Positions 29,542-41,033 of a stretch of 64,000 bases of DNA are shown here, piece by piece. Under the pieces are notes generated by a model that was not told the origin of the DNA, made no database searches, and worked only from the letters and a program-made list of their open reading frames with translations. Made by a program: the position numbers and the translations under genes. Location: positions 1 to 64,000 of the forward strand of contig CAUYUJ010000127.1 of NCBI GenBank assembly GCA_963575745.1. The letters run 5' to 3'. Position 1 is the first letter of the stretch; every line of letters starts with the position of its first letter. The DNA comes from Prorocentrum cordatum. Its lineage: Eukaryota.

Positions 29542-30884
29542 GCGGGGCCTCCTTCCTCCGCCTCGCCTCCGGGAGTGGGGGGGGAAGGGGAAGGGGGAGG
29601 AGGAGGAGGAGGAGGGGGGGGGAGAGAGGAGAGGAGGAGGAGGAGGAGGAGAGGAGGAGGAGGAGGAGGAGGAGGAGGAGGAGGAGGAGGAGGAGGAGGA
29701 GGAGGAGGAGGAGGACGAGGAGGAGGAGGACGAGGAGGAGGAGGAGGAGGAAGAGGAGGAGGAGGAGGACGAGGCGGACGAGGAGGAGGAGGACGAGGAG
29801 GAGGAGGAGGAGGGAGGAGGAGGAGGAGGACGAGGAGGAGGAGGAGGACGAGGCGGAGGAGGAGGAGGAGGAGGAGGTGTAGGGGTAGGGGCCAGTGGCG
29901 CTGCTGGTGCCGATCGGACCACATTTCAAGAGAAGACCTTCGCTGCCGCTGCTCTCGTTCGGACTTGCTCAGGACTTTGGGGACCACCCCATTCGCCAGG
30001 CGACCTATATATTCACGCCCCGCACGTGTGGGGGGCGCACAGAGCTTGCCCGGAGACCAAAGCTGCTCATGAGCGATACCCCCGCAAGGCCCCCCAAAAC
30101 CATAAATGCAGAGGGAGGGAGGGGGTGAAGGAGAAGAAGAAAGCCCTCTCAGAAGGCGTTGGGGTTTCTCAGAAGCCCTCTGGCTTTCTGTGAAGTGTTC
30201 TGTGTTTTCGGGGTAGTCTTAGAAACTTTCTCAGAAGGCCAGTGAACTTCCGAGCCTTCTGAGAAGGCCCGCCCCCTTTCAGTCACTCCCCCACCCAGGC
30301 TAGCCGCCGAGGGAGGGCGGGGGTGAGGGAGGAGGGGGGGAGGAGGAGGAACTCTACCGCATCGCCCTGGAGCTCTACACCGTGCTCGCGCGGCTCGTGG
30401 TGGATAGTGTAGTTGGGGTGAAGAGAAGCCCTTCAGTACGGAGGAGGAGGGATAGGAAGAGGAATAGGAGGCAGAGGAGGAGGATGAGGAGCAGGGAAAG
30501 ATGCAGACGAGGAGGACCATGCTAATGATGATGAGGACGAGGATAGTGGTAAAGATGATGCTGATGATGATCATCATGGTGGTGATGTTGATGATGGTGA
30601 TGGTGATGGTGCTTATGTGATGCTGCTGCTGATAGTGCCGGTCATGATTGTGATGTTGATGCTGGCAGTGGTGATGTTGAGCAGGAGGAGGTGGAGGAGG
30701 AGGAGGCAGAGGAGGAGGAGGAGGAGGAGGAGGAGGAGGAGGAGGAGACGGAGGATGAGGGCAAGAAGAGGAGAGGGGAGGAGGCCCCTTCCTCCTCCTC
30801 CTCACCTCCTCCTCCTCCTCTCCTCCTCCTCCTCCTCCTCCTCCTCCTCCTCTCCTCCTCCTCCTCCTCCTCCTCCTCCTCCTC

Positions 30885-30906
30885 CCCGTTGCCATTTTGG
30901 CTCAAG
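30885..30906 (+). other. Dinoflagellate spliced leader at the LINE 5' end
   Basis: CCCGTTGCCATTTTGGCTCAAG matches DinoSL at 20 of 22 positions with the last 16 nt perfect; 93 nt separate it from the ORF1 ATG. Confidence 0.92.
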
Positions 30907-30999: not shown

Positions 31000-32184
31000 A
31001 TGGCTGATGCAGTCCCTGCCGCGCCTGCCAGTACCCAGGAGCGCCAGATGCTTGCTGAGCTTGAAGAGATGCCCACCTTCCCCGACGGCGAGCGCTCGGG
31101 CAAAGGCCAGGGGACGGGCCGCTTCACCCAGCGCAAGCGCCAGGCCCTCGCTTCGTCCAGTGCCGGTGCCCCTGTTCCCTCTCCTCACGATGATGACGAT
31201 GATGATGGTGACTTTCTTCGGCAGCTGTGCAGAGAGGAGTTTGCCTCAATGCGCGACACCATCACCACCGAGGTGTCAGAGTCGGTCGCCAAGACCATCA
31301 CCTCCAATCACAACACGTTGCTCAAGATGTTGTCCTCCATGCAGGGCGAGGTGGCAAAACAATCCAGTGCCATCGAGGGCCAGGTTCAATCGGCGATTGC
31401 CCCCAGGCTCGACTCGCTCAACAGACGCCTCCAAGCCCAGCTCGACGAGCAGAAGCGCAGCATCGACGCGCTGGAGGGCAGAGCTGACGGGCATGACAAG
31501 TCCATCCAGGATCTTCAAGACCAGCTGGCGGAGCTACGTCGCCAGATGGCCATCGCTGAACAGACTCCCAGGAAGCAGCTGGCTGCTCCCACATCCTTCG
31601 ACCGCGAGGAGGACACCACGATCGTCGTTGCCGTCTCGCAGCGACCGACTACCCTGGCATCAGTGGTCTCATCGCTGCGCCCATGGCTCGGCGAGATTGG
31701 CTTTGATGATGAACAGTATGAGATCAAGCAGAAAGGCGAGTCCCCGGCCAGGAGGTTCGAGATCTGTTTCTCGGGCTCGGCCACCATCGCCTCGCGCCGC
31801 GCCAGCAAGACCACCTCGCTCCTCAAGGGACCCGACGGCTGGAAAGAGTTCTGGGTCGACCCACCAGGCGCTGAGCGTTGCCGTTTGCACCTCGGCCCCG
31901 ACAAGTCGCCCAAGCGTATCAAGACCGAGGTTACCCTGCGCAAGGCCAGGGCTATCGTCGAGCTGCAGTACCCAGGCAAGCGATTCTACTCCGACAGCGA
32001 GCATGGCGTCCTCTCCATTGGGTGGGACAAGATCATGCATGTCAATGTCTTCCACGGCGACACCCCGCCCAAGATCTACTGGGACTCTGCGCAGCTTGCC
32101 AAGCACGCCATGGCTATCGACACGCTTCGCAATGCTGTCAAGGAGCTCACGCATCCGTCCGACCCCAGCCAGTGGTGTCTTTAG
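31000..32184 (+). CDS. LINE ORF1 protein (394 aa): coiled coil plus probable RRM/CTD-like region
   Basis: First ATG after the SL; heptads LDSLNRRLQAQLDEQKRSIDALEGR..IQDLQDQLAELRRQM; L1-ORF1p-like layout (RLHLGPDKSP); lies directly before APE-RT. Confidence 0.85.
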   Translation: MADAVPAAPASTQERQMLAELEEMPTFPDGERSGKGQGTGRFTQRKRQALASSSAGAPVPSPHDDDDDDGDFLRQLCREEFASMRDTITTEVSESVAKTITSNHNTLLKMLSSMQGEVAKQSSAIEGQVQSAIAPRLDSLNRRLQAQLDEQKRSIDALEGRADGHDKSIQDLQDQLAELRRQMAIAEQTPRKQLAAPTSFDREEDTTIVVAVSQRPTTLASVVSSLRPWLGEIGFDDEQYEIKQKGESPARRFEICFSGSATIASRRASKTTSLLKGPDGWKEFWVDPPGAERCRLHLGPDKSPKRIKTEVTLRKARAIVELQYPGKRFYSDSEHGVLSIGWDKIMHVNVFHGDTPPKIYWDSAQLAKHAMAIDTLRNAVKELTHPSDPSQWCL

Positions 32185-35100
32185 CGCTGCTGGACTATTT
32201 CATCTTCCTCCCCCGCCGCCTGGGTCAGCGGCGCCTACGTTTCGGATTGCTACTTGGAATTCTCGGGCGCTTCTTCAGGCTGGTGGGGACAAGGCCATTC
32301 TGAAGAGAAAGTATGTTCTCAGTCTCCGTCCCCTCTCCACGGTCATCGCGCTGCAGGAGGTGCACCAGGACCACTTCCAGCTCGACTCGTTCTTCAGATC
32401 GATCGCGTCAGGCCTCACGATCCACTCCAGCTTCATTTCCGACGCAGATGACGGGCATCGGCGGGGTGGGGTTGCTGTGGTGCTCCCGCCGTTGGCTTGT
32501 CAGGGCTTCTCCGCTCCGTCGTCATCCTCCACTGTCCTGGTACCTGGCCGAGCGATGCTAGTCCGTGTTTGGGATGACTGCCGCACGCTCGACATCTTCA
32601 ACATTCACAATCATGGTCTGTCCGCCCAGCAGGTTCGCGAAGTGGCTACCGCGATACGAGTATCGCAACGTGCTGCTGCCCTCGACCCCGACATGTACAC
32701 CACCTTTGTCCTCGGGGACTTCAATTTTGCCACGCGCGAGGCTCTCGCGCTCGCTGCCCCCGCGGCGGCCGTGCGCAAGCTGTCGAAGTGCCACCACGTG
32801 CAGGCGCCCAAGTGGCGCCAGGCCCTCGCCCTCCTGACAGAGATTGCGTGCGAGGACCCTACGCACTACGAGAAGTTCAACGACTCGTGCGCGACGATCG
32901 ACCGCGTCTTCTGCTCGATCACGGGCTGGCAGCTCTGCCAGTTGTATGTCCAGATTGGCACGCTTGGCACGCCAGCGGCCGTCTTTGACAAAAAGATCTC
33001 TGACCATGCTGCTGTTGTTCTCTCGCTTGCCTGCCGCCCGCCTCGACCAGTGGAGTCCCGCCCCATTCCCAAACACCTGTTCTCGGAGCCTGGTTTCAAG
33101 CGGCGCCTGGAGGGGCTGTGCTCCTGCATCCCGTGGGACTCCATGTCGCCCCCGTTCCAGGTTGAAAAGTACAAGGAGCTTTTGAAGATTTCGGCCGCGG
33201 AGACCAGGGACACCCTCTTTCGGGACAGGCCGCATCACCCGCGCACCTGCCTCCTGCTCGCTCGTGCTCTGGCCCGTGTGGTTTGGAGGCAAGACCTGCG
33301 TATGGCTTCCAGGCTCCAGGACTCCCACCCCCTGGCCATTGACATGATATCGATCACCGACGGGAAGGTCGAGCTCCGCCACCCGCCGTCCTTCCAGGCC
33401 TGGGTCGACCAAGTCCAGACTGAGGCTGCTGAGTCCGCGAAGGCTGAGCTTGAAGATCGCAGACGGCGTGAAGGTGACCGCGTCCAGATTCGTGCCCAGG
33501 TTCGCGCGCTTGAACGGCGTGCTCGTCTCTGGTCCCCTCTCAATCGAAGGATATCGCTCTCAGCGGTTATTGCGCCAGATGGCTCTGCGGTCAGCGTTCC
33601 ATCTGACCGTCTTCGGGTGCTCTCGGAGCACTGGGCCCCTGTCTTCCAGAAAAAGCCGTGGGACGTTGCTGCTGCTGCTCCCTACCTTCGCCGCCTTGCT
33701 CCTGACCTTCCTGCCGACCTACACCTCCCCCCGCCGTCGAAAAATATGCTACGTCGAGCAATTCGATCTGCCCAACACTCCGCTCCTGGGCCTGATGCTC
33801 TCCCGCATGCTGCGTGGGCGGCGTCCTCTTGGGGGGCTGACATATTATGGGACGCTCTTGGCTGGGTACTCAGGGGCCAAGAGCTATTTGCGAATACTAG
33901 TGACACGATCCAGATTTTTCTGCCCAAAAACGTCACGGACTTGGAGCTCCGCGATGCCAGCTGTTCCCGCTCCCCCGGCAAGGTTCGAGTCCTGGGCCTC
34001 AGGAACTGTGACCTGAAGCGCATCTCATCCACCGTCAATCGGGCGATCCGACCTGCCCTGGTATCCCTCGCCCCGCCGTGCCAGCGTGGATTCATACCGG
34101 GTAGGAATTTCGGCAACAACATCCTCGAGCTCGACGTATCGAGTCGTCAGATGTCGGTCGTACCTCACGGGTCTACCGATATCCCTGTGCTGTATTCCTT
34201 GGACTTCGGCCAGGCCTTCCCGTCTCTGAATCAGGACTTCCTCATTCTCTCCCTTAGGGCCCTCAAGCTGCCCGAAGCATTCGTGTCTTTCGTCGCGTTC
34301 CTATATGCATCGGTGGAAGGGGTTGTCTCGCACCTAGGTTTGCTAGTAGTGCACATCTTCTGGATCCAGAGCGGCATCATCCAAGGTTGTGCCTTATCGG
34401 GCACTCTCTATGCGTTGAGTACGGCTGTCTTCTTGGTCGACCTGGCCTCTCGGGTGGAGGCCGCTGGCCTTGGCCTGGTTCGGGCCTGTGCTGACGACAT
34501 TGGGGGCACGTTATTGGCCATACGGCACCTAGTTCATGTGTATCGGGTTATGCAGATGGCCTCGGACATGGCCAACCTCGCCCTGAAGGTCTCGAAATGC
34601 AAGATTGTCCCGCTGTCTGACAGGTTCTCGCCCGACCTCTCAGCCACAGTCTCCTACTGGGTCTCCCATCTGGTCCCCGAGTGGAGCTCGTTCGAGGTGG
34701 CTCCCAAGCTGCTCTACCTGGGCCTCTGGCTGGGGCCTGCTGTTGTTCCGTCCACTTGTTGGATTGACCCCGTCGCCAAATTGCGTCTCAGGGCCCAAGC
34801 CATCGGGCGGGGAACCACTCCTGCCAGCCTTTCCGCTACACTGTACAGTACTCGGGCCGTCACGACCATTTCTTACGTTGCCCAATTCTGCTGGCCGCCA
34901 TCGTCAGTGTTGCAGCCTGAGTTGGCGACGCTCGCGCAGGTGTTCCGCATCCCGCTCGGCACTTTCGCCCTCGACTTCTGGACGCAGATCGCTCAGTGGG
35001 GCGGCGCGCGCTGCACGCGGTGGGGGCACCTGGCCGTCGCCACCATCACTCGTGCTGCGTTGCGCACTTTCCCAGGCTGGGAGAGGCTCCTCCAGCAGTT

Positions 35101-37210
35101 GCGGAACCACGCGAGCGCCGCCCCGTACGATGCCACCCTGTCCATGCTGGCGACCGGCAAGCCGTGCCCGTCCTTCTGGTTGGCCCCCGCCTTTGTGGAG
35201 AATTTGGCGCTGGCCGCCGCTGGCACCCCTCCCCCTGGCCCGCTGGCCGTCTTTGGTGCTCGTGCTGCCGACGCTGCGCTGGCTGAACTTCGTGAGAGCG
35301 GCCGACTTCGTCCTCGACCTCAGAGAGCTGCTCACGAAGCGCTGCGGGCCTTTGCGATGCTGAACAAGCCCATCACTGACCTCTTCGTGCTCCGCCTGAG
35401 GAAGTTCGCTGGCAGGTCGGCGGGCCTCCTTTCGAACATCGACTGGGGCGAGTGCAAGTGCGTCCTCGCCCGCTGCCCGTGCTCGTGGGCCATGGCCGTC
35501 CTGCGCACTTGGTCTGATGGCTGGATGACTTCGGCCCGTATCATCTCACCTGACGGCCAGAAGCACTGCGTATTTGGTTGTCTAGGCAAACTCGACTCGT
35601 TGCGGCACTACGCGAGATGCCCTGTCATGCACCGTGCCCTTCGGCAGGCTCTCGCGAGACCGTTCCCGCTCCCGTGGATGACCAGATGGGGCCTATCTGA
35701 ACCCTCGCTGGCCACCTTCTCGGCGATGGCTGCCGCATGCAACATGTACAACGAAGCGAGGCTGGCGCCCGTGTGGCCCTTGCCCCCGTCCCTCCTCCGC
35801 AGCTGTGCTCTCGCTGGTGTATGTTCGATGCAGCTCGCGTCACCGCTGAAGTGCTCGGAGATCGACCGCGAGCAGCTCGGCCGTCGGGACTACCTCATTC
35901 GCAGTTCTTCATCATCTTCATCCTCGGGGTCGTCTCCACGGCTCACTCCTGCCGTTTCGTCGTCGGACAGCGACACGGCCACCGTCTCCACAGCCATCGC
36001 CACGATCCCGTCGGACTCCGACGCTGACGATGAACCTCAGCTGCCAGCGACGCCGCCAGCTACGTGCTCTCCTTCGGCTTCGGCGACCTCCCCCCCGCCT
36101 TCCTCCGCGCCCCCGTCGATGGCGCGCTCCTCATCAACTCTGAGGGCGGCCCCATCTCCATCAATGCCTTTGAGAACCTCACAGATGGCGTCCGCCTGCT
36201 CATCAATTTCGCCGCCGGCCCCAATTTCGCCCTGCTCTTGTGTGACGCCGTCCCCGCCAGTGACGTTGTCGTCTACGGGTTCGTATGCCTCGTCGCCTCC
36301 CATCGGCGTTAGATCGCAAGTCCCGTTGTCGTGTTCGGGCTCACTGTCGCCATGTGCTGGATGCCTCGTGACGCCCCAGCTGGGCCCAGGCGTTAGATCG
36401 CAAGACCCGTTGTCGTGTTCGGGCTACACGTCGCCACATGTACGATGCTTCGATGGGGAGCATCTCTCCCGTGGCGTTAGAATGCAAGTCCCGTTGTCGT
36501 GTTCGGGCTCGCCGTCGCCACATGATCGTTGCCGTGATTCGGGACGCTGGTCCGACGGCGTTAGATCGCAAGTCCCGTTGTCGTGTTCGGGCTCGCAGTC
36601 GCCACGTGTCGGACGAAATCCTGGGAATTTGGTGGCTGCACGACGTTCGGCGCGTTCATCGACCCCGGCTTCCGAGCGCTCCACTACACCGATGTCCACG
36701 TGCTTTCCGATGTCGCGCTCCCCTTCGGTGTCGCCGACGGCTCTGATGTCGCCCCCACCGTTGCCCTCTGAGTGCGCTTCGGAAAATGAGCAGCCTGTTT
36801 TATCTTTTCCCCCCCGCACGTCCGTCGCCCTTCGGCAGGCCGCCCTGGCCCCACCTCTCCCTCACGCGTCGCCCTCCTCAGACGAGCCAGATCTGACCTG
36901 TCACGCCACTCTCGAGGCTGGCCTTCCCCCCACCCGTCCTTCGCTCCCGAGTGCTGCCCCTGCCTCTGCTTGCCCCCCGCCTGCTCCCCCTCCCTCCGCG
37001 TTTGTGCCTGTCATGTTTCCCGATGTCTTTTCGTCGCTCGGCCCCTCGAGCTCATCGCTTGTACCATCTCTCGCTGGCGCCATCGCGCCCCGCCTGATTG
37101 AAATAGCCGCTCGCGACGTCTTCATCGCGGGCGGCACCGTGCTGGCCGACTCGGCCGTCAATGGTGCGCCCCGCCCGCCGCCGCCCGACGAGGCGCGCCG
37201 CAGGGGGTAG
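32132..37210 (+). CDS. LINE ORF2: APE endonuclease, reverse transcriptase, CCHC knuckle and long Ser/Pro-rich tail (start uncertain; frame open from ATG 31007)
   Basis: APE motifs ATWN, ALQEVH, VLGDFN, TIDRV, SDH (~32237-33030). RT motifs SAPGPD, QRGFIPGR, LDFGQAF, GIIQGCALS, CADD (34487-98), YLG. C-x3-C-x8-H-x3-C at 35567-35620. Confidence 0.93.
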   Translation: MLSRSSRIRPTPASGVFSAAGLFHLPPPPPGSAAPTFRIATWNSRALLQAGGDKAILKRKYVLSLRPLSTVIALQEVHQDHFQLDSFFRSIASGLTIHSSFISDADDGHRRGGVAVVLPPLACQGFSAPSSSSTVLVPGRAMLVRVWDDCRTLDIFNIHNHGLSAQQVREVATAIRVSQRAAALDPDMYTTFVLGDFNFATREALALAAPAAAVRKLSKCHHVQAPKWRQALALLTEIACEDPTHYEKFNDSCATIDRVFCSITGWQLCQLYVQIGTLGTPAAVFDKKISDHAAVVLSLACRPPRPVESRPIPKHLFSEPGFKRRLEGLCSCIPWDSMSPPFQVEKYKELLKISAAETRDTLFRDRPHHPRTCLLLARALARVVWRQDLRMASRLQDSHPLAIDMISITDGKVELRHPPSFQAWVDQVQTEAAESAKAELEDRRRREGDRVQIRAQVRALERRARLWSPLNRRISLSAVIAPDGSAVSVPSDRLRVLSEHWAPVFQKKPWDVAAAAPYLRRLAPDLPADLHLPPPSKNMLRRAIRSAQHSAPGPDALPHAAWAASSWGADILWDALGWVLRGQELFANTSDTIQIFLPKNVTDLELRDASCSRSPGKVRVLGLRNCDLKRISSTVNRAIRPALVSLAPPCQRGFIPGRNFGNNILELDVSSRQMSVVPHGSTDIPVLYSLDFGQAFPSLNQDFLILSLRALKLPEAFVSFVAFLYASVEGVVSHLGLLVVHIFWIQSGIIQGCALSGTLYALSTAVFLVDLASRVEAAGLGLVRACADDIGGTLLAIRHLVHVYRVMQMASDMANLALKVSKCKIVPLSDRFSPDLSATVSYWVSHLVPEWSSFEVAPKLLYLGLWLGPAVVPSTCWIDPVAKLRLRAQAIGRGTTPASLSATLYSTRAVTTISYVAQFCWPPSSVLQPELATLAQVFRIPLGTFALDFWTQIAQWGGARCTRWGHLAVATITRAALRTFPGWERLLQQLRNHASAAPYDATLSMLATGKPCPSFWLAPAFVENLALAAAGTPPPGPLAVFGARAADAALAELRESGRLRPRPQRAAHEALRAFAMLNKPITDLFVLRLRKFAGRSAGLLSNIDWGECKCVLARCPCSWAMAVLRTWSDGWMTSARIISPDGQKHCVFGCLGKLDSLRHYARCPVMHRALRQALARPFPLPWMTRWGLSEPSLATFSAMAAACNMYNEARLAPVWPLPPSLLRSCALAGVCSMQLASPLKCSEIDREQLGRRDYLIRSSSSSSSSGSSPRLTPAVSSSDSDTATVSTAIATIPSDSDADDEPQLPATPPATCSPSASATSPPPSSAPPSMARSSSTLRAAPSPSMPLRTSQMASACSSISPPAPISPCSCVTPSPPVTLSSTGSYASSPPIGVRSQVPLSCSGSLSPCAGCLVTPQLGPGVRSQDPLSCSGYTSPHVRCFDGEHLSRGVRMQVPLSCSGSPSPHDRCRDSGRWSDGVRSQVPLSCSGSQSPRVGRNPGNLVAARRSARSSTPASERSTTPMSTCFPMSRSPSVSPTALMSPPPLPSECASENEQPVLSFPPRTSVALRQAALAPPLPHASPSSDEPDLTCHATLEAGLPPTRPSLPSAAPASACPPPAPPPSAFVPVMFPDVFSSLGPSSSSLVPSLAGAIAPRLIEIAARDVFIAGGTVLADSAVNGAPRPPPPDEARRRG
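36305..36640 (+). repeat. Four 84-nt units with a conserved ~37-nt core and variable remainder, inside ORF2
   Basis: GGCGTTAGATCGCAAGTCCCGTTGTCGTGTTCGGGCT at 36305, 36389, 36473 and 36557 (0-2 mismatches). Confidence 0.92.
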
Positions 37211-38099
37211 GCAGGAGCAGTGGATCCTCCTGGTACGCTGGGCTCCTCCTCCTCCTCCTCCTCCTCCTCCTCCTCCTGCTCCTGCTGCTTCTAAGTGCAT
37301 TGTGTCCTGGTTTCCTTTTCACCATCCCTTCTCCCTCGTCCCCCCCCTCTTCGCGTCTCCCGCACTTCCTCCCTCCTCTGCCTCTCCTGCCTCCGTCATA
37401 CCTTCCTGGCTTCTTCCTCCCTTCCTCCTTCCCTGCCCTCTCCTCCTCCCAATTCCCTTTGCTCTCAAAAGGCAGACCTGCAGCCGCTGGCTGGGGGGGA
37501 GGACCAGGCCAGCGCTTCCGCAGCGGAGTCGCTGGTCAGGACTGCCGTGCTCACATGTTCCATCCTCCTCTTGTCCTTCCCTTTGTTCTCTGTCTTCCTT
37601 CTCCTTCTCCTCCTCCTCCTTTTCCTTTCCCTCCCCCTCCTCCTCGTCATACTCCTCATCGTCGTCGTCCTCGTAGTCCTCTTCTTGCTCCGCCTCCTCC
37701 TCCTCCTCCTTTTCCTCCTTTTCCTTCTCTTCCTCCTCCCCATCCTTGTGCCCTCCACCTCAATATTCGTCCTCCTCACCTCCTCATCCTCCTCCTCCTC
37801 TTCCTCCTCCTCCTCCTCCTCCTCCTCCTCCTCCTCCGCAATCTCATCATCCCCCATTCCCACTCCTCTCCTAATCATGATCAATCTTTACCAGTTTTGC
37901 AAACAGCATGAAGCTTTCTCCGCATCCTTGACCTTCATCTCCTCATCCTGCTCACATGTATCTTCCTCCTTCTCCTCCACTTTCTCATCCGCCTGCTCCT
38001 CCCCCTCTGCTTCCGCCTTTCGCTTCCTCCTCCCCCCTCCCCCTCCCCATCCCCGTCGCTCATCCTCCTTTGCCTACCCTTACCCGATGGAGCAATTAT

Positions 38100-38420
38100 G
38101 AAGGGAACCGGTAACTGCATGGGAACGTGGACGGAAACCGGGAGCCAGAAAGTTGGGAACCGGGAAGCGGGAACGGGAACCGGGAGCCGAAAACCGGGGG
38201 AGCTGGGAACTGGGAGCGAGAGCCAGGAGTCGGGAACCGGGAACGGGAATGGGAATTTGGGAGCCGGGAGTTGGGGACCGGGAGCCGGGAACGGGGAACC
38301 TGGAACCTGGAACCTGGAACCCGGAACCCGGAGTTGTGAATTGGGAGCGGGGAGCCAGGAGCCAGGATCTGGGAGACGGGAGCGCAGGACCTGGAGCATG
38401 TGTTCGGGAGTTGGGAAGCC
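38100..38420. repeat. (GGGAACC/GGGAGCC)n degenerate heptamer repeat (also ~46920-47050, ~47470-47620 and inverted at ~25670-25760)
   Basis: Direct reading. Confidence 0.85.
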
Positions 38421-39559: not shown

Positions 39560-40312
39560 CGGGTGTGTGTGTGCTTATGTGTACGTATGTATGTACGTGT
39601 GTACGTATGGATGTGTGCATGTATGTATGTATGCATGCATGCATATGTGTAGACAGGTAGGTCGGTAGGCAGTCATGTAGGTGGGTAGGTAGATGTTGCA
39701 TGCACGTATGTATGTATACATGCATGCATGCATGCATGCATGCATGCATGTATGTATGTATGTCTATAGACAGGTAGGCATGTAGGTAGGCAGGTAGGTA
39801 GGTAGATAGGTATGCATGCATGCATGCATGTACGTATGGGTGTGCGTAATCATGTAAAGTATGGATGCGTGGATGTATGCATGTAGGTAGGTAGGTAGGT
39901 AGGTATGTCTGTATGTATGTATGTATGTATGTATGTAGGTAGGTCGGTAGGTAGGTAGGTAGGTAGGTAGGTAGGTAGGTATGTGTGTCTGTATGCATGC
40001 ATGCATGCATGCATGCATGCATAGTTGGGTGTATATATATATGCATGTATGTATGTATGTATGTATGTATGTATGTATGTATGTATGTATGTATGTATGT
40101 ATGTATGTATGTATGTATGTATGTACGTGTGCATGCATGCATGCATGCATGTATGTATGTATATATGTAGGTATGTATGTTTGTATGTATGTATGTATGT
40201 GTGTATAAGTGTGTATGTAGTTGTGTATGTATGTATGCATACATGCATGTATGAATGTATGTATGTATGTGTGTATGTTTATACATATATACATATATAC
40301 ACATATCAAATG

Positions 40313-40347: not shown

Positions 40348-41033
40348 TCGTACCTATACGACCGCCCTGCGGGCGATAAGGAGGCTGGGGGTAGGTTGAG
40401 ACCAAATGCCCACCCTGACTGACGTCCAGCCTGTCACCTTGATCTCATCTCTCTATTTCTCTGTCTCTCTCTCTCTCTGTCTCGCTCTCTCTCTCTCTCT
40501 CGCCCTCTCTCTCTCTCTCCCTCTCTATCAGAGTCTCCCTCCACCACAATGATGATCGCGATGACGATGAGATCCCACGGGACGCCCGGGACACCCGGGA
40601 CACCCAGGACACCGCCCGGCCCAGTTGGGACACCTCCCGGCCACCGGCGGACGGGAAACGGACTTTCGCTCCTACTGACACCCGGGACACCCGGGACACC
40701 GCCCGGCCCAGCTGGGACACCTCCCAGCCACCGGCGGACGGGAACGGACTTTCGCTCCTGCTTCGGCCCAGCTACAGGAGGATCACGCGCAGCTTCGCCT
40801 CGCCCGCACGCGCGACGTCGAGCACGAAACCGAAGCCGATTTCCCGGTGGGGGGTCTCCGCTTCACGGCGATGTCACCCCCCAAACCTCCGATGTATGCA
40901 CACGGGTAACAGCAGGAGCGGGCGCTCGGGGCTCTTGGCGGGCGGCCCCAGCAGCGCGTGGCTGTTGCAGGCCTCCTGGAGCCCTCCGGAGGCCCTCCGG
41001 GCCGCTTCAGGCGCCCGGGTCCGTCCTTGCTGC

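Follow-up and report, generated by a model that had tools for sequence, protein, structure and literature searches.

The DNA described here is a stretch of 64,000 nucleotides from the red-tide dinoflagellate Prorocentrum cordatum (contig CAUYUJ010000127.1, positions 1 to 64,000 of the forward strand; hereafter the window). It holds a long interspersed nuclear element (LINE), and the 3' part of the long open reading frame (ORF) of this LINE contains a tandem array in which a near-invariant sequence alternates with a strongly divergent one. The array is a real, lineage-specific mosaic minisatellite located in the tail of a P. cordatum LINE, and we tentatively read its conserved part as a cis element acting at the nucleotide level. 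Attention had been drawn to it by an original prediction that a model made from the sequence alone. The features needed to follow the array are:

31007-37210, + strand: frame-0 ORF of 2067 amino acids (aa), covering nearly the whole element; the array lies in its frame 0
35900-37210, + strand: non-conserved tail in which Ser, Pro and Ala together make up 49% of the frame-0 residues; frame 0 is open and the other frames have 9 and 11 stops
36255-36304, + strand: degenerate older unit (U0), consisting of a partial core at 36255-36283 and a linker-like piece at 36285-36302
36305-36640, + strand: array of four 84-nt units placed head-to-tail, each with a conserved core of 47-48 nt followed by a divergent linker of 36-37 nt
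36310-36312, + strand: TAG in columns 6-8 of the first core, present in every unit; it terminates the frame +2 reading (36034-36309) of the public protein model P0005

Tandem Repeats Finder (TRF) reports the array at 36305-36609 with a period of 84, 3.6 copies, 76% matches and a score of 329. A repeat search places the unit starts at 36305, 36389, 36473 and 36557, with spacings of 84, 84 and 84, and finds the 38-nt core four times with 0, 2, 2 and 0 mismatches and not once in 100 shuffles of the window. The four units, the exact period and the near-identical core of the original prediction are thereby confirmed, as is their location in the extension of the reverse transcriptase (RT) ORF. The degenerate partial core expected near 36265 is the one in U0; it is 69-79% identical to the four cores (nhmmer E = 0.28-0.45 for U0). 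A profile search of the window for further units returned nothing beyond the four units and U0. The units are paralogues that arose by tandem duplication, with the decayed older unit adjoining them upstream. Since a 114-nt contig from an unrelated seawater metagenome run spans 36305-36418 with 1 difference, the array is not an artefact of the assembly of the window.

Traces of similar sequence are also present elsewhere in the tail. The hexamer GTCGCC is about 10-fold enriched at 35900-37242 outside units 2-4 (6 found, 0.57 expected), and by manual count five of these six copies share one phase, in which they read Ser-Pro in frame 0. Pieces resembling unit columns 38-56 occur at about 36690-36760.

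Conservation is distributed very unevenly along the unit. When the units are aligned in register, 7 of the 48 columns in the first part vary (columns 10, 11, 17 and 38-41), as against 31 of 36 in columns 49-84 (Fisher p = 2.5e-11), and any two units agree at 41-45 of the first 47 positions and at 12-19 of the remaining 37. This unevenness had been predicted, and so had the invariance of GTCGCCA, which occupies columns 42-48 and shows no variation among the four units. The two edges of the core differ. At the 5' edge similarity jumps from near-random at column 84 to invariant at column 1; at the other end it fades gradually from column 48 to about column 60. Five CpG dinucleotides common to the cores (columns 3, 20, 26, 32 and 44) are kept in all four units; unit 3 has lost another one, at column 11.

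The linkers are diverged paralogues of one another and not foreign cargo, as five of the six pairs, in gapped alignments of 37 nt, score better than at least 93% of shuffles (4, 13, 14, 44 and 61 of 1000 shuffles reached the observed score; 434 did so for the sixth pair). The variable segment of about 32 nt described in the original prediction is therefore strongly different between units as stated, but it is about 36 nt long and keeps a weak homology. Compared with the rest of the 64-kb window, the linkers gave chance matches only, none longer than 12 nt. Variable linker columns are spread over codon positions 1, 2 and 3 as 11, 10 and 10. Other copies could be compared in X1, a DNA run of another sample, for which the listing covers 40 of the 227 differences and 12 of the 143 contig pieces. 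The dominant X1 variant on unit 2 differs at columns 50, 53-55, 61 and 66, and its columns 50-64 read like unit 1 in the same register (manual table reading). This variant stands between units 1 and 2; intermediate forms therefore exist, and the divergence of the linkers came about by in-register substitution. A diversity-generating retroelement was considered as a source of the linker differences and rejected: the differences are not limited to adenines, and 16 of the 31 variable linker columns contain no A and 11 no T.

All twelve third codon positions of columns 1-37 are identical in the four units, as the original prediction had it. In frame 0, the substitutions that do occur in these columns alter the amino acid (V to D; S to M through two adjacent changes), and none is synonymous. 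The excess of synonymous differences expected of a protein tandem repeat under purifying selection was found neither among units nor among copies. Invariant third positions next to near-saturated linkers, together with non-synonymous core changes and a peptide without relatives, mean that peptide selection alone fails as an explanation. A nucleotide-level cause is then left, which could be either selection or homogenisation. Of the two explanations offered originally, the 28-aa peptide repeat thus falls as the sole cause, and the RNA- or DNA-level element with variable cargo survives in its first half and loses the cargo, the linkers being paralogues. Signs of an ordinary protein repeat had been named in advance. 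Spacers aligning as diverged paralogues were seen in part (the five linker pairs), and free variation of the core at synonymous sites was not seen in columns 1-37.

X1 has 135 contigs on the tail, at 80-100% identity. The 14 listed differences that fall in the array are all located in columns 50-77, and linkers altered at 6 and at 8 of 37 positions adjoin cores without a listed change. Depth reaches 170 and 304 in the core-holding bins and 20-34 in the flanking tail, i.e., about 5-10 times the flanks. Five contigs enter the core from mutually dissimilar upstream sequence (agreement 0.53). Unit number may vary as well, as suggested by three low-depth joints within contigs together with the raised core depth; these are contig pieces and not a whole second array. 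Two further runs of the same study yielded no contigs placed on the region. Among the 227 X1 differences at 35400-37400, changes of the types A>T and T>A are numerous (25 and 23) for an A+T content of only about 35%; transitions account for 109 of the 227.

The fold of the core was examined on both strands. In the consensus fold an AG.CCCG/CGGGCU hairpin is enclosed by the pairing of GGCG (columns 1-4) with CGCC (columns 44-47). The predicted weak CCCG/CGGG stem is thus present, and all seven variable core columns are unpaired. As sense RNA, the 47-nt core folds no better than its shuffles (z of +0.06, +0.49, -0.15 and -0.65 for units 1-4). As antisense RNA it beats the shuffles in three of the four units (z of -2.5, -0.2, -3.3 and -3.7), with a stem of 9-10 bp that uses G-U pairs; one C-G to U-G change is found among the antisense-strand pairs. 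The cores of units 1 and 4 modelled as single-stranded DNA gave z of -0.2 to -1.6 on either strand. If the core has a structural role at all, these models suggest that it may be on the antisense strand.

We consider it most plausible, with a probability of roughly 0.4, that the core is a cis element kept at the nucleotide level in the active lineage, that the linkers are free to change and that the period is held by the need for an open frame. The first 47-48 nt of each unit would then be a cis-acting nucleic-acid module that stays unchanged at the nucleotide level as long as the lineage is active, most likely a repeated protein-binding or hairpin site on the RNA of the element, the better hairpin being antisense. 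The 36-37-nt linkers would drift freely, and the amino-acid sequence of the units would not itself be selected. The period would stay at 84 nt, or 28 codons, because neither a stop nor a shift of frame could be tolerated in the tail until about 30 nt from the 3' end. Selection on the core is favoured since the listed X1 differences inside the array are confined to linkers, depth peaks over the cores, the 5' edge is abrupt and the CpGs are intact.

A number of points weigh against selection on the core. As the X1 comparison covers the listed differences and pieces, core variants may lie among the rest. The variant contigs may be paralogous units and not orthologues, in which case they are silent on stability over time, and all between-copy evidence comes from contig pieces without a complete second array. 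TRF found a tail array of period at least 10 downstream of the match in none of 10 distant metagenomic relatives (the loci reaching furthest into the C-terminal part, chosen out of 80 metagenomic LINE loci with an identity of 36% or less), which makes the feature young or lineage-specific. As to structure, the whole 84-nt unit has no significant fold, be it as sense or antisense (z from -1.75 to +1.99), the predicted core pairs are all invariant and so show no covariation, and Rfam has no family for the array (one sub-threshold match to a small nucleolar RNA lies outside it). Because the four cores are near-identical and hence not independent, the antisense hairpin counts roughly as a single observation, made among several windows that were folded. 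A 26-nt pattern of the core had no matches in metagenome, viral and prokaryote-genome contigs.

Dinoflagellate genomes are rich in LINEs copied from spliced-leader-capped RNA, and we know of no account of how these elements recognise their own RNA. If the core is indeed under selection, a letter-perfect sequence repeated four times in a freely evolving tail would be a candidate cis signal for such self-recognition. 'Stringent' LINEs such as eel UnaL2 have a single 3' stem-loop recognition signal at the very 3' end, the structure of which was shown experimentally. By analogy, the role proposed for the core would be the same: a short stretch of conserved RNA near the 3' end of a LINE would be recognised by the RT of that LINE. 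The differences are that here there are four copies located 0.6 kb from the end, that the sense fold is no better than shuffles and that binding is putative.

Neutral minisatellite dynamics, which we hold somewhat less probable, are a strong rival to a selected cis element. Short-tract gene conversion, unequal exchange or RT slippage would homogenise the core alone, as the part that is still similar enough, and the diverged linkers, locked out of this process, would drift; no function is required. The linkers are still recognisable as paralogues, conservation fades beyond column 48, a decayed older unit lies upstream, and the enrichment of GTCGCC-type sequence along the tail suggests a long-running turnover. 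Three joints in X1 contigs, which go back 38, go back 125 and skip 152 nucleotides, fit changes in unit number, and a sense-strand structure has neither thermodynamic nor covariation support. However, conversion tracts should grade on both sides, whereas the 5' edge of the core is abrupt. Conversion would also not halt the drift of the consensus, yet in the listed data no change is apparent in the cores that adjoin the linkers with 6 and 8 of 37 positions altered, and the five shared CpGs are intact in every unit. Should the array nevertheless be a minisatellite merely homogenised by conversion, it would be a clear example of how mosaic repeats mimic repeat-spacer arrays.

Tandem repeats occur in various retroelements, the variable number tandem repeat (VNTR) of SVA being one example. 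Such repeats have been described in 3' regions of non-LTR (lacking long terminal repeats) retrotransposons, e.g., in Hebe and telomeric elements (in the consulted parts of PMC2861651), which fits neutral dynamics here as well. As in those minisatellites, head-to-tail units of tens of bases occupy the 3' part of the element, and their number may vary between copies. Unlike them, the P. cordatum array lies inside an ORF, has an exact period of 84 nt (28 codons) and combines a nearly invariant core with a near-saturated linker. Therefore, 3' tandem repeats of non-LTR elements as such are already known, and it is the mosaic core-linker form within an ORF that differs here.

A translated repeat is improbable. 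It would consist of 28 aa with the motif GVRSQVPLSCSGSxSP in a disordered Ser/Pro-rich C-terminal extension of the ORF2 protein; protein-level selection would maintain the motif, and gene conversion would account for the identical codons. Several properties of the tail speak for it. The period is exactly 28 codons, a C-x6-[CH]-x2-C pattern is present in three of the four units, and frame 0 is open over 31007-37210, ending 32 nt before the 3' microsatellite. The tail contains 21% Ser, 17% Pro and 11% Ala in frame 0, and its 23 S/T-P dipeptides are encoded by 14 different codon pairs. No frame-0 stop occurs at 35900-37207; this was matched by none of 2000 dinucleotide shuffles, or by 21 of 2000 once units 2-4 were removed. 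Three-base periodicity is strong: of the 90 frame-0 codons that lie just before the array, 67 have C as their second base. Periodicity of this kind is also expected from a decayed triplet microsatellite, which lowers stops in all frames. The more distant protein P0010 also has a long C-terminal extension of its own, about 500 aa and unrelated.

Other observations count against a translated repeat. The core substitutions are all non-synonymous, and codon-position bias is absent both in the linkers and between copies: 35 listed tail differences fall on codon positions 1, 2 and 3 as 12, 9 and 14. Because the differences are spread so evenly, the tail is not under purifying selection at the protein level; it is kept open, or is open by chance, without it. 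Conservation against three distant relatives ends at about residue 1200 of the trimmed protein, i.e., at about nucleotide 35900, and the proteins P0008 and P0011 end at the conserved C-terminus. The frame-0 array peptide had no matches among proteins of 279-889 aa, and three matches, all to unrelated repeat proteins, among 1.84 billion representatives. A search with the whole-tail protein retrieved just two further copies, whose models stop at ...YLIR or five residues before it. The protein Atlas gave a best score of 0.76 with low recognition, and Pfam found nothing on the tail, on the frame +2 piece or on the antisense ORF.

Public gene models never read the array in frame 0. Three P. cordatum models end with ...YLIR at the start of a Ser-codon microsatellite and a fourth ends five residues earlier. 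Two models switch to frame +2 for 36034-36309, one of them ending with ...HRR, with the TAG of the first core coming next in the window. The frame +2 piece is 67% identical to P0005 and 45% to P0003, as against 88-89% in the body, so the tail evolves much faster than the body; the piece shows no similarity to the tail of P0007, a relative with 48% identity. Coding in frame +2 at 36034-36309 was considered and found no support, as the fewest between-copy differences (2 of 14) are at the position synonymous in that frame. In the public models (P0003-P0005, P0017 and P0018), predicted introns seem to bridge ORF1 and ORF2, and likewise ORF2 and the frame +2 tail piece. The public gene models of this LINE family are probably transposon annotation artefacts.

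It is very doubtful that the units are retroelement-borne modules, in which a constant 47-nt handle (with its best fold on the antisense strand) and a fast-changing 37-nt segment would be processed into RNAs or serve as a multivalent platform in retrotransposition or in a conflict with host silencing. If this were true, a LINE would carry a eukaryotic repeat-plus-variable-segment system.

A guide-like or small-RNA array, with units processed to RNAs of about 84 nt or shorter that join a constant handle to a variable targeting part, is highly improbable. Its appeal lies only in the repeat-spacer look, the fixed period and the diverse linkers of other copies. Against it, the linkers are mutual paralogues without matches longer than 12 nt elsewhere in the window, and the hairpin stem has just 9-10 bp. 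The array does resemble clustered regularly interspaced short palindromic repeats (CRISPR), in that constant repeats of about 38-47 nt and variable segments of about 37 nt follow each other in turn with a fixed period. It differs from CRISPR by its position in an ORF of a eukaryotic nuclear LINE, by mutually homologous spacers and by having a weak palindrome only. A CRISPR array was rejected on the mutual relatedness of the spacers and on the location within a 2067-aa LINE ORF with relatives named Prorocentrum cordatum, no search with cas profiles having been made; the original prediction had rightly withheld the name, the array being in a nuclear LINE of a dinoflagellate.

The least probable origin of the cores is from decayed spliced-leader relicts stacked by repeated retroposition. 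When aligned with the leader relict at the 5' end of the element itself, the core agrees at 16 of 21 positions if one gap of 2 nt is allowed, and separated relicts, spaced by 6 to about 450 bp, are reported upstream of genes (in the consulted part of PMC5585692). However, 69 of 2000 shuffles score as well (p of about 0.035) in a comparison made post hoc, and a relict is a 5' feature, with no mechanism that would repeat it every 84 nt exactly at a distance of 0.6 kb from the 3' end.

The element carrying the array (30886 to about 37242) is a complete LINE. The leader relict at its 5' end, standing right after (TCC)33, and the (CTC)13 run at its 3' end indicate that a trans-spliced mRNA was copied in full and inserted in a TCC microsatellite. 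The remaining features of the element are:

30790-30885, + strand: (TCC)n microsatellite, the presumed target site, directly 5' of the element (TRF period 3, 33 copies)
30886-30906, + strand: relict dinoflagellate spliced leader (DinoSL) at the LINE 5' end, 1 of 21 letters off the canonical DinoSL by eye
31000-32184, + strand: ORF1, 394 aa, in frame +2 relative to the long ORF, coiled-coil-like; matches N-terminal parts of P0003-P0005
32270-33100, + strand: apurinic-type endonuclease (EEP, endonuclease/exonuclease/phosphatase) region of ORF2, boundaries approximate, with invariant catalytic-type columns up to S244-D245-H246; P0008, P0010 and P0011 have PF03372
33974-34612, + strand: reverse transcriptase RVT_1, residues 990-1202 (Pfam E = 1.3e-11)
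35567-35620, + strand: Cys/His knuckle C-x3-C-x8-H-x3-C within the conserved C-terminal domain; its residues (C1100, C1104, H1113 and C1117 of P0016) are the same in all 4 aligned relatives
37211-37242, + strand: short stretch of 32 nt between the frame-0 stop and the 3' microsatellite
37243-37283, + strand: (CTC)n at the 3' end of the element, a tail or a target duplication (TRF, 13.7 copies)

The canonical DinoSL used for comparison was taken from the consulted part of PMC5585692. As expected of a LINE, the element has RT and endonuclease in one ORF and exists in several genomic copies; within the 64-kb window no further copy was found. Its closest public proteins are five models named Prorocentrum cordatum (88-96% identity), and more distant proteins (25-31% identity) have the endonuclease family PF03372, for which Pfam is silent on the window's own protein at E <= 0.1. 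On ORF1 Pfam gave coiled-coil matches only, all sub-threshold. The passages searched in the P. cordatum genome paper (PMC10666404) make no mention of these LINEs. The active-site box of the reverse transcriptase (34230-34250, around ORF residue 1080) reads C-A-D-D, with both aspartates kept.

Frame 0 opens at an ATG 7 nt after the ATG of ORF1 and has no stop across the whole of ORF1 (31000-32269). Codon shuffles of ORF1 have on average 6.0 stops in frame 0 and 4 of 5000 have none; among 2000 dinucleotide shuffles none was stop-free. The body of ORF2 is also low in +1-frame stops compared to codon shuffles (19 vs 31). The open frame 0 over ORF1 may be an overlapping frame or a leaky-scanning design, and a general bias explains part of it.

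Several other repeats are found around the element. At 30679-30885, 5' of the insertion point, (GAG)n is directly followed by (TCC)n, forming an inverted microsatellite with about 84% identity over about 200 nt in self-BLAST. Downstream of the element are (GGGAACC)n at 38155-38332, about 175 copies of (TGTA) at 39580-40278 and an 87-nt unit present twice with 95% identity at 40590-40759.

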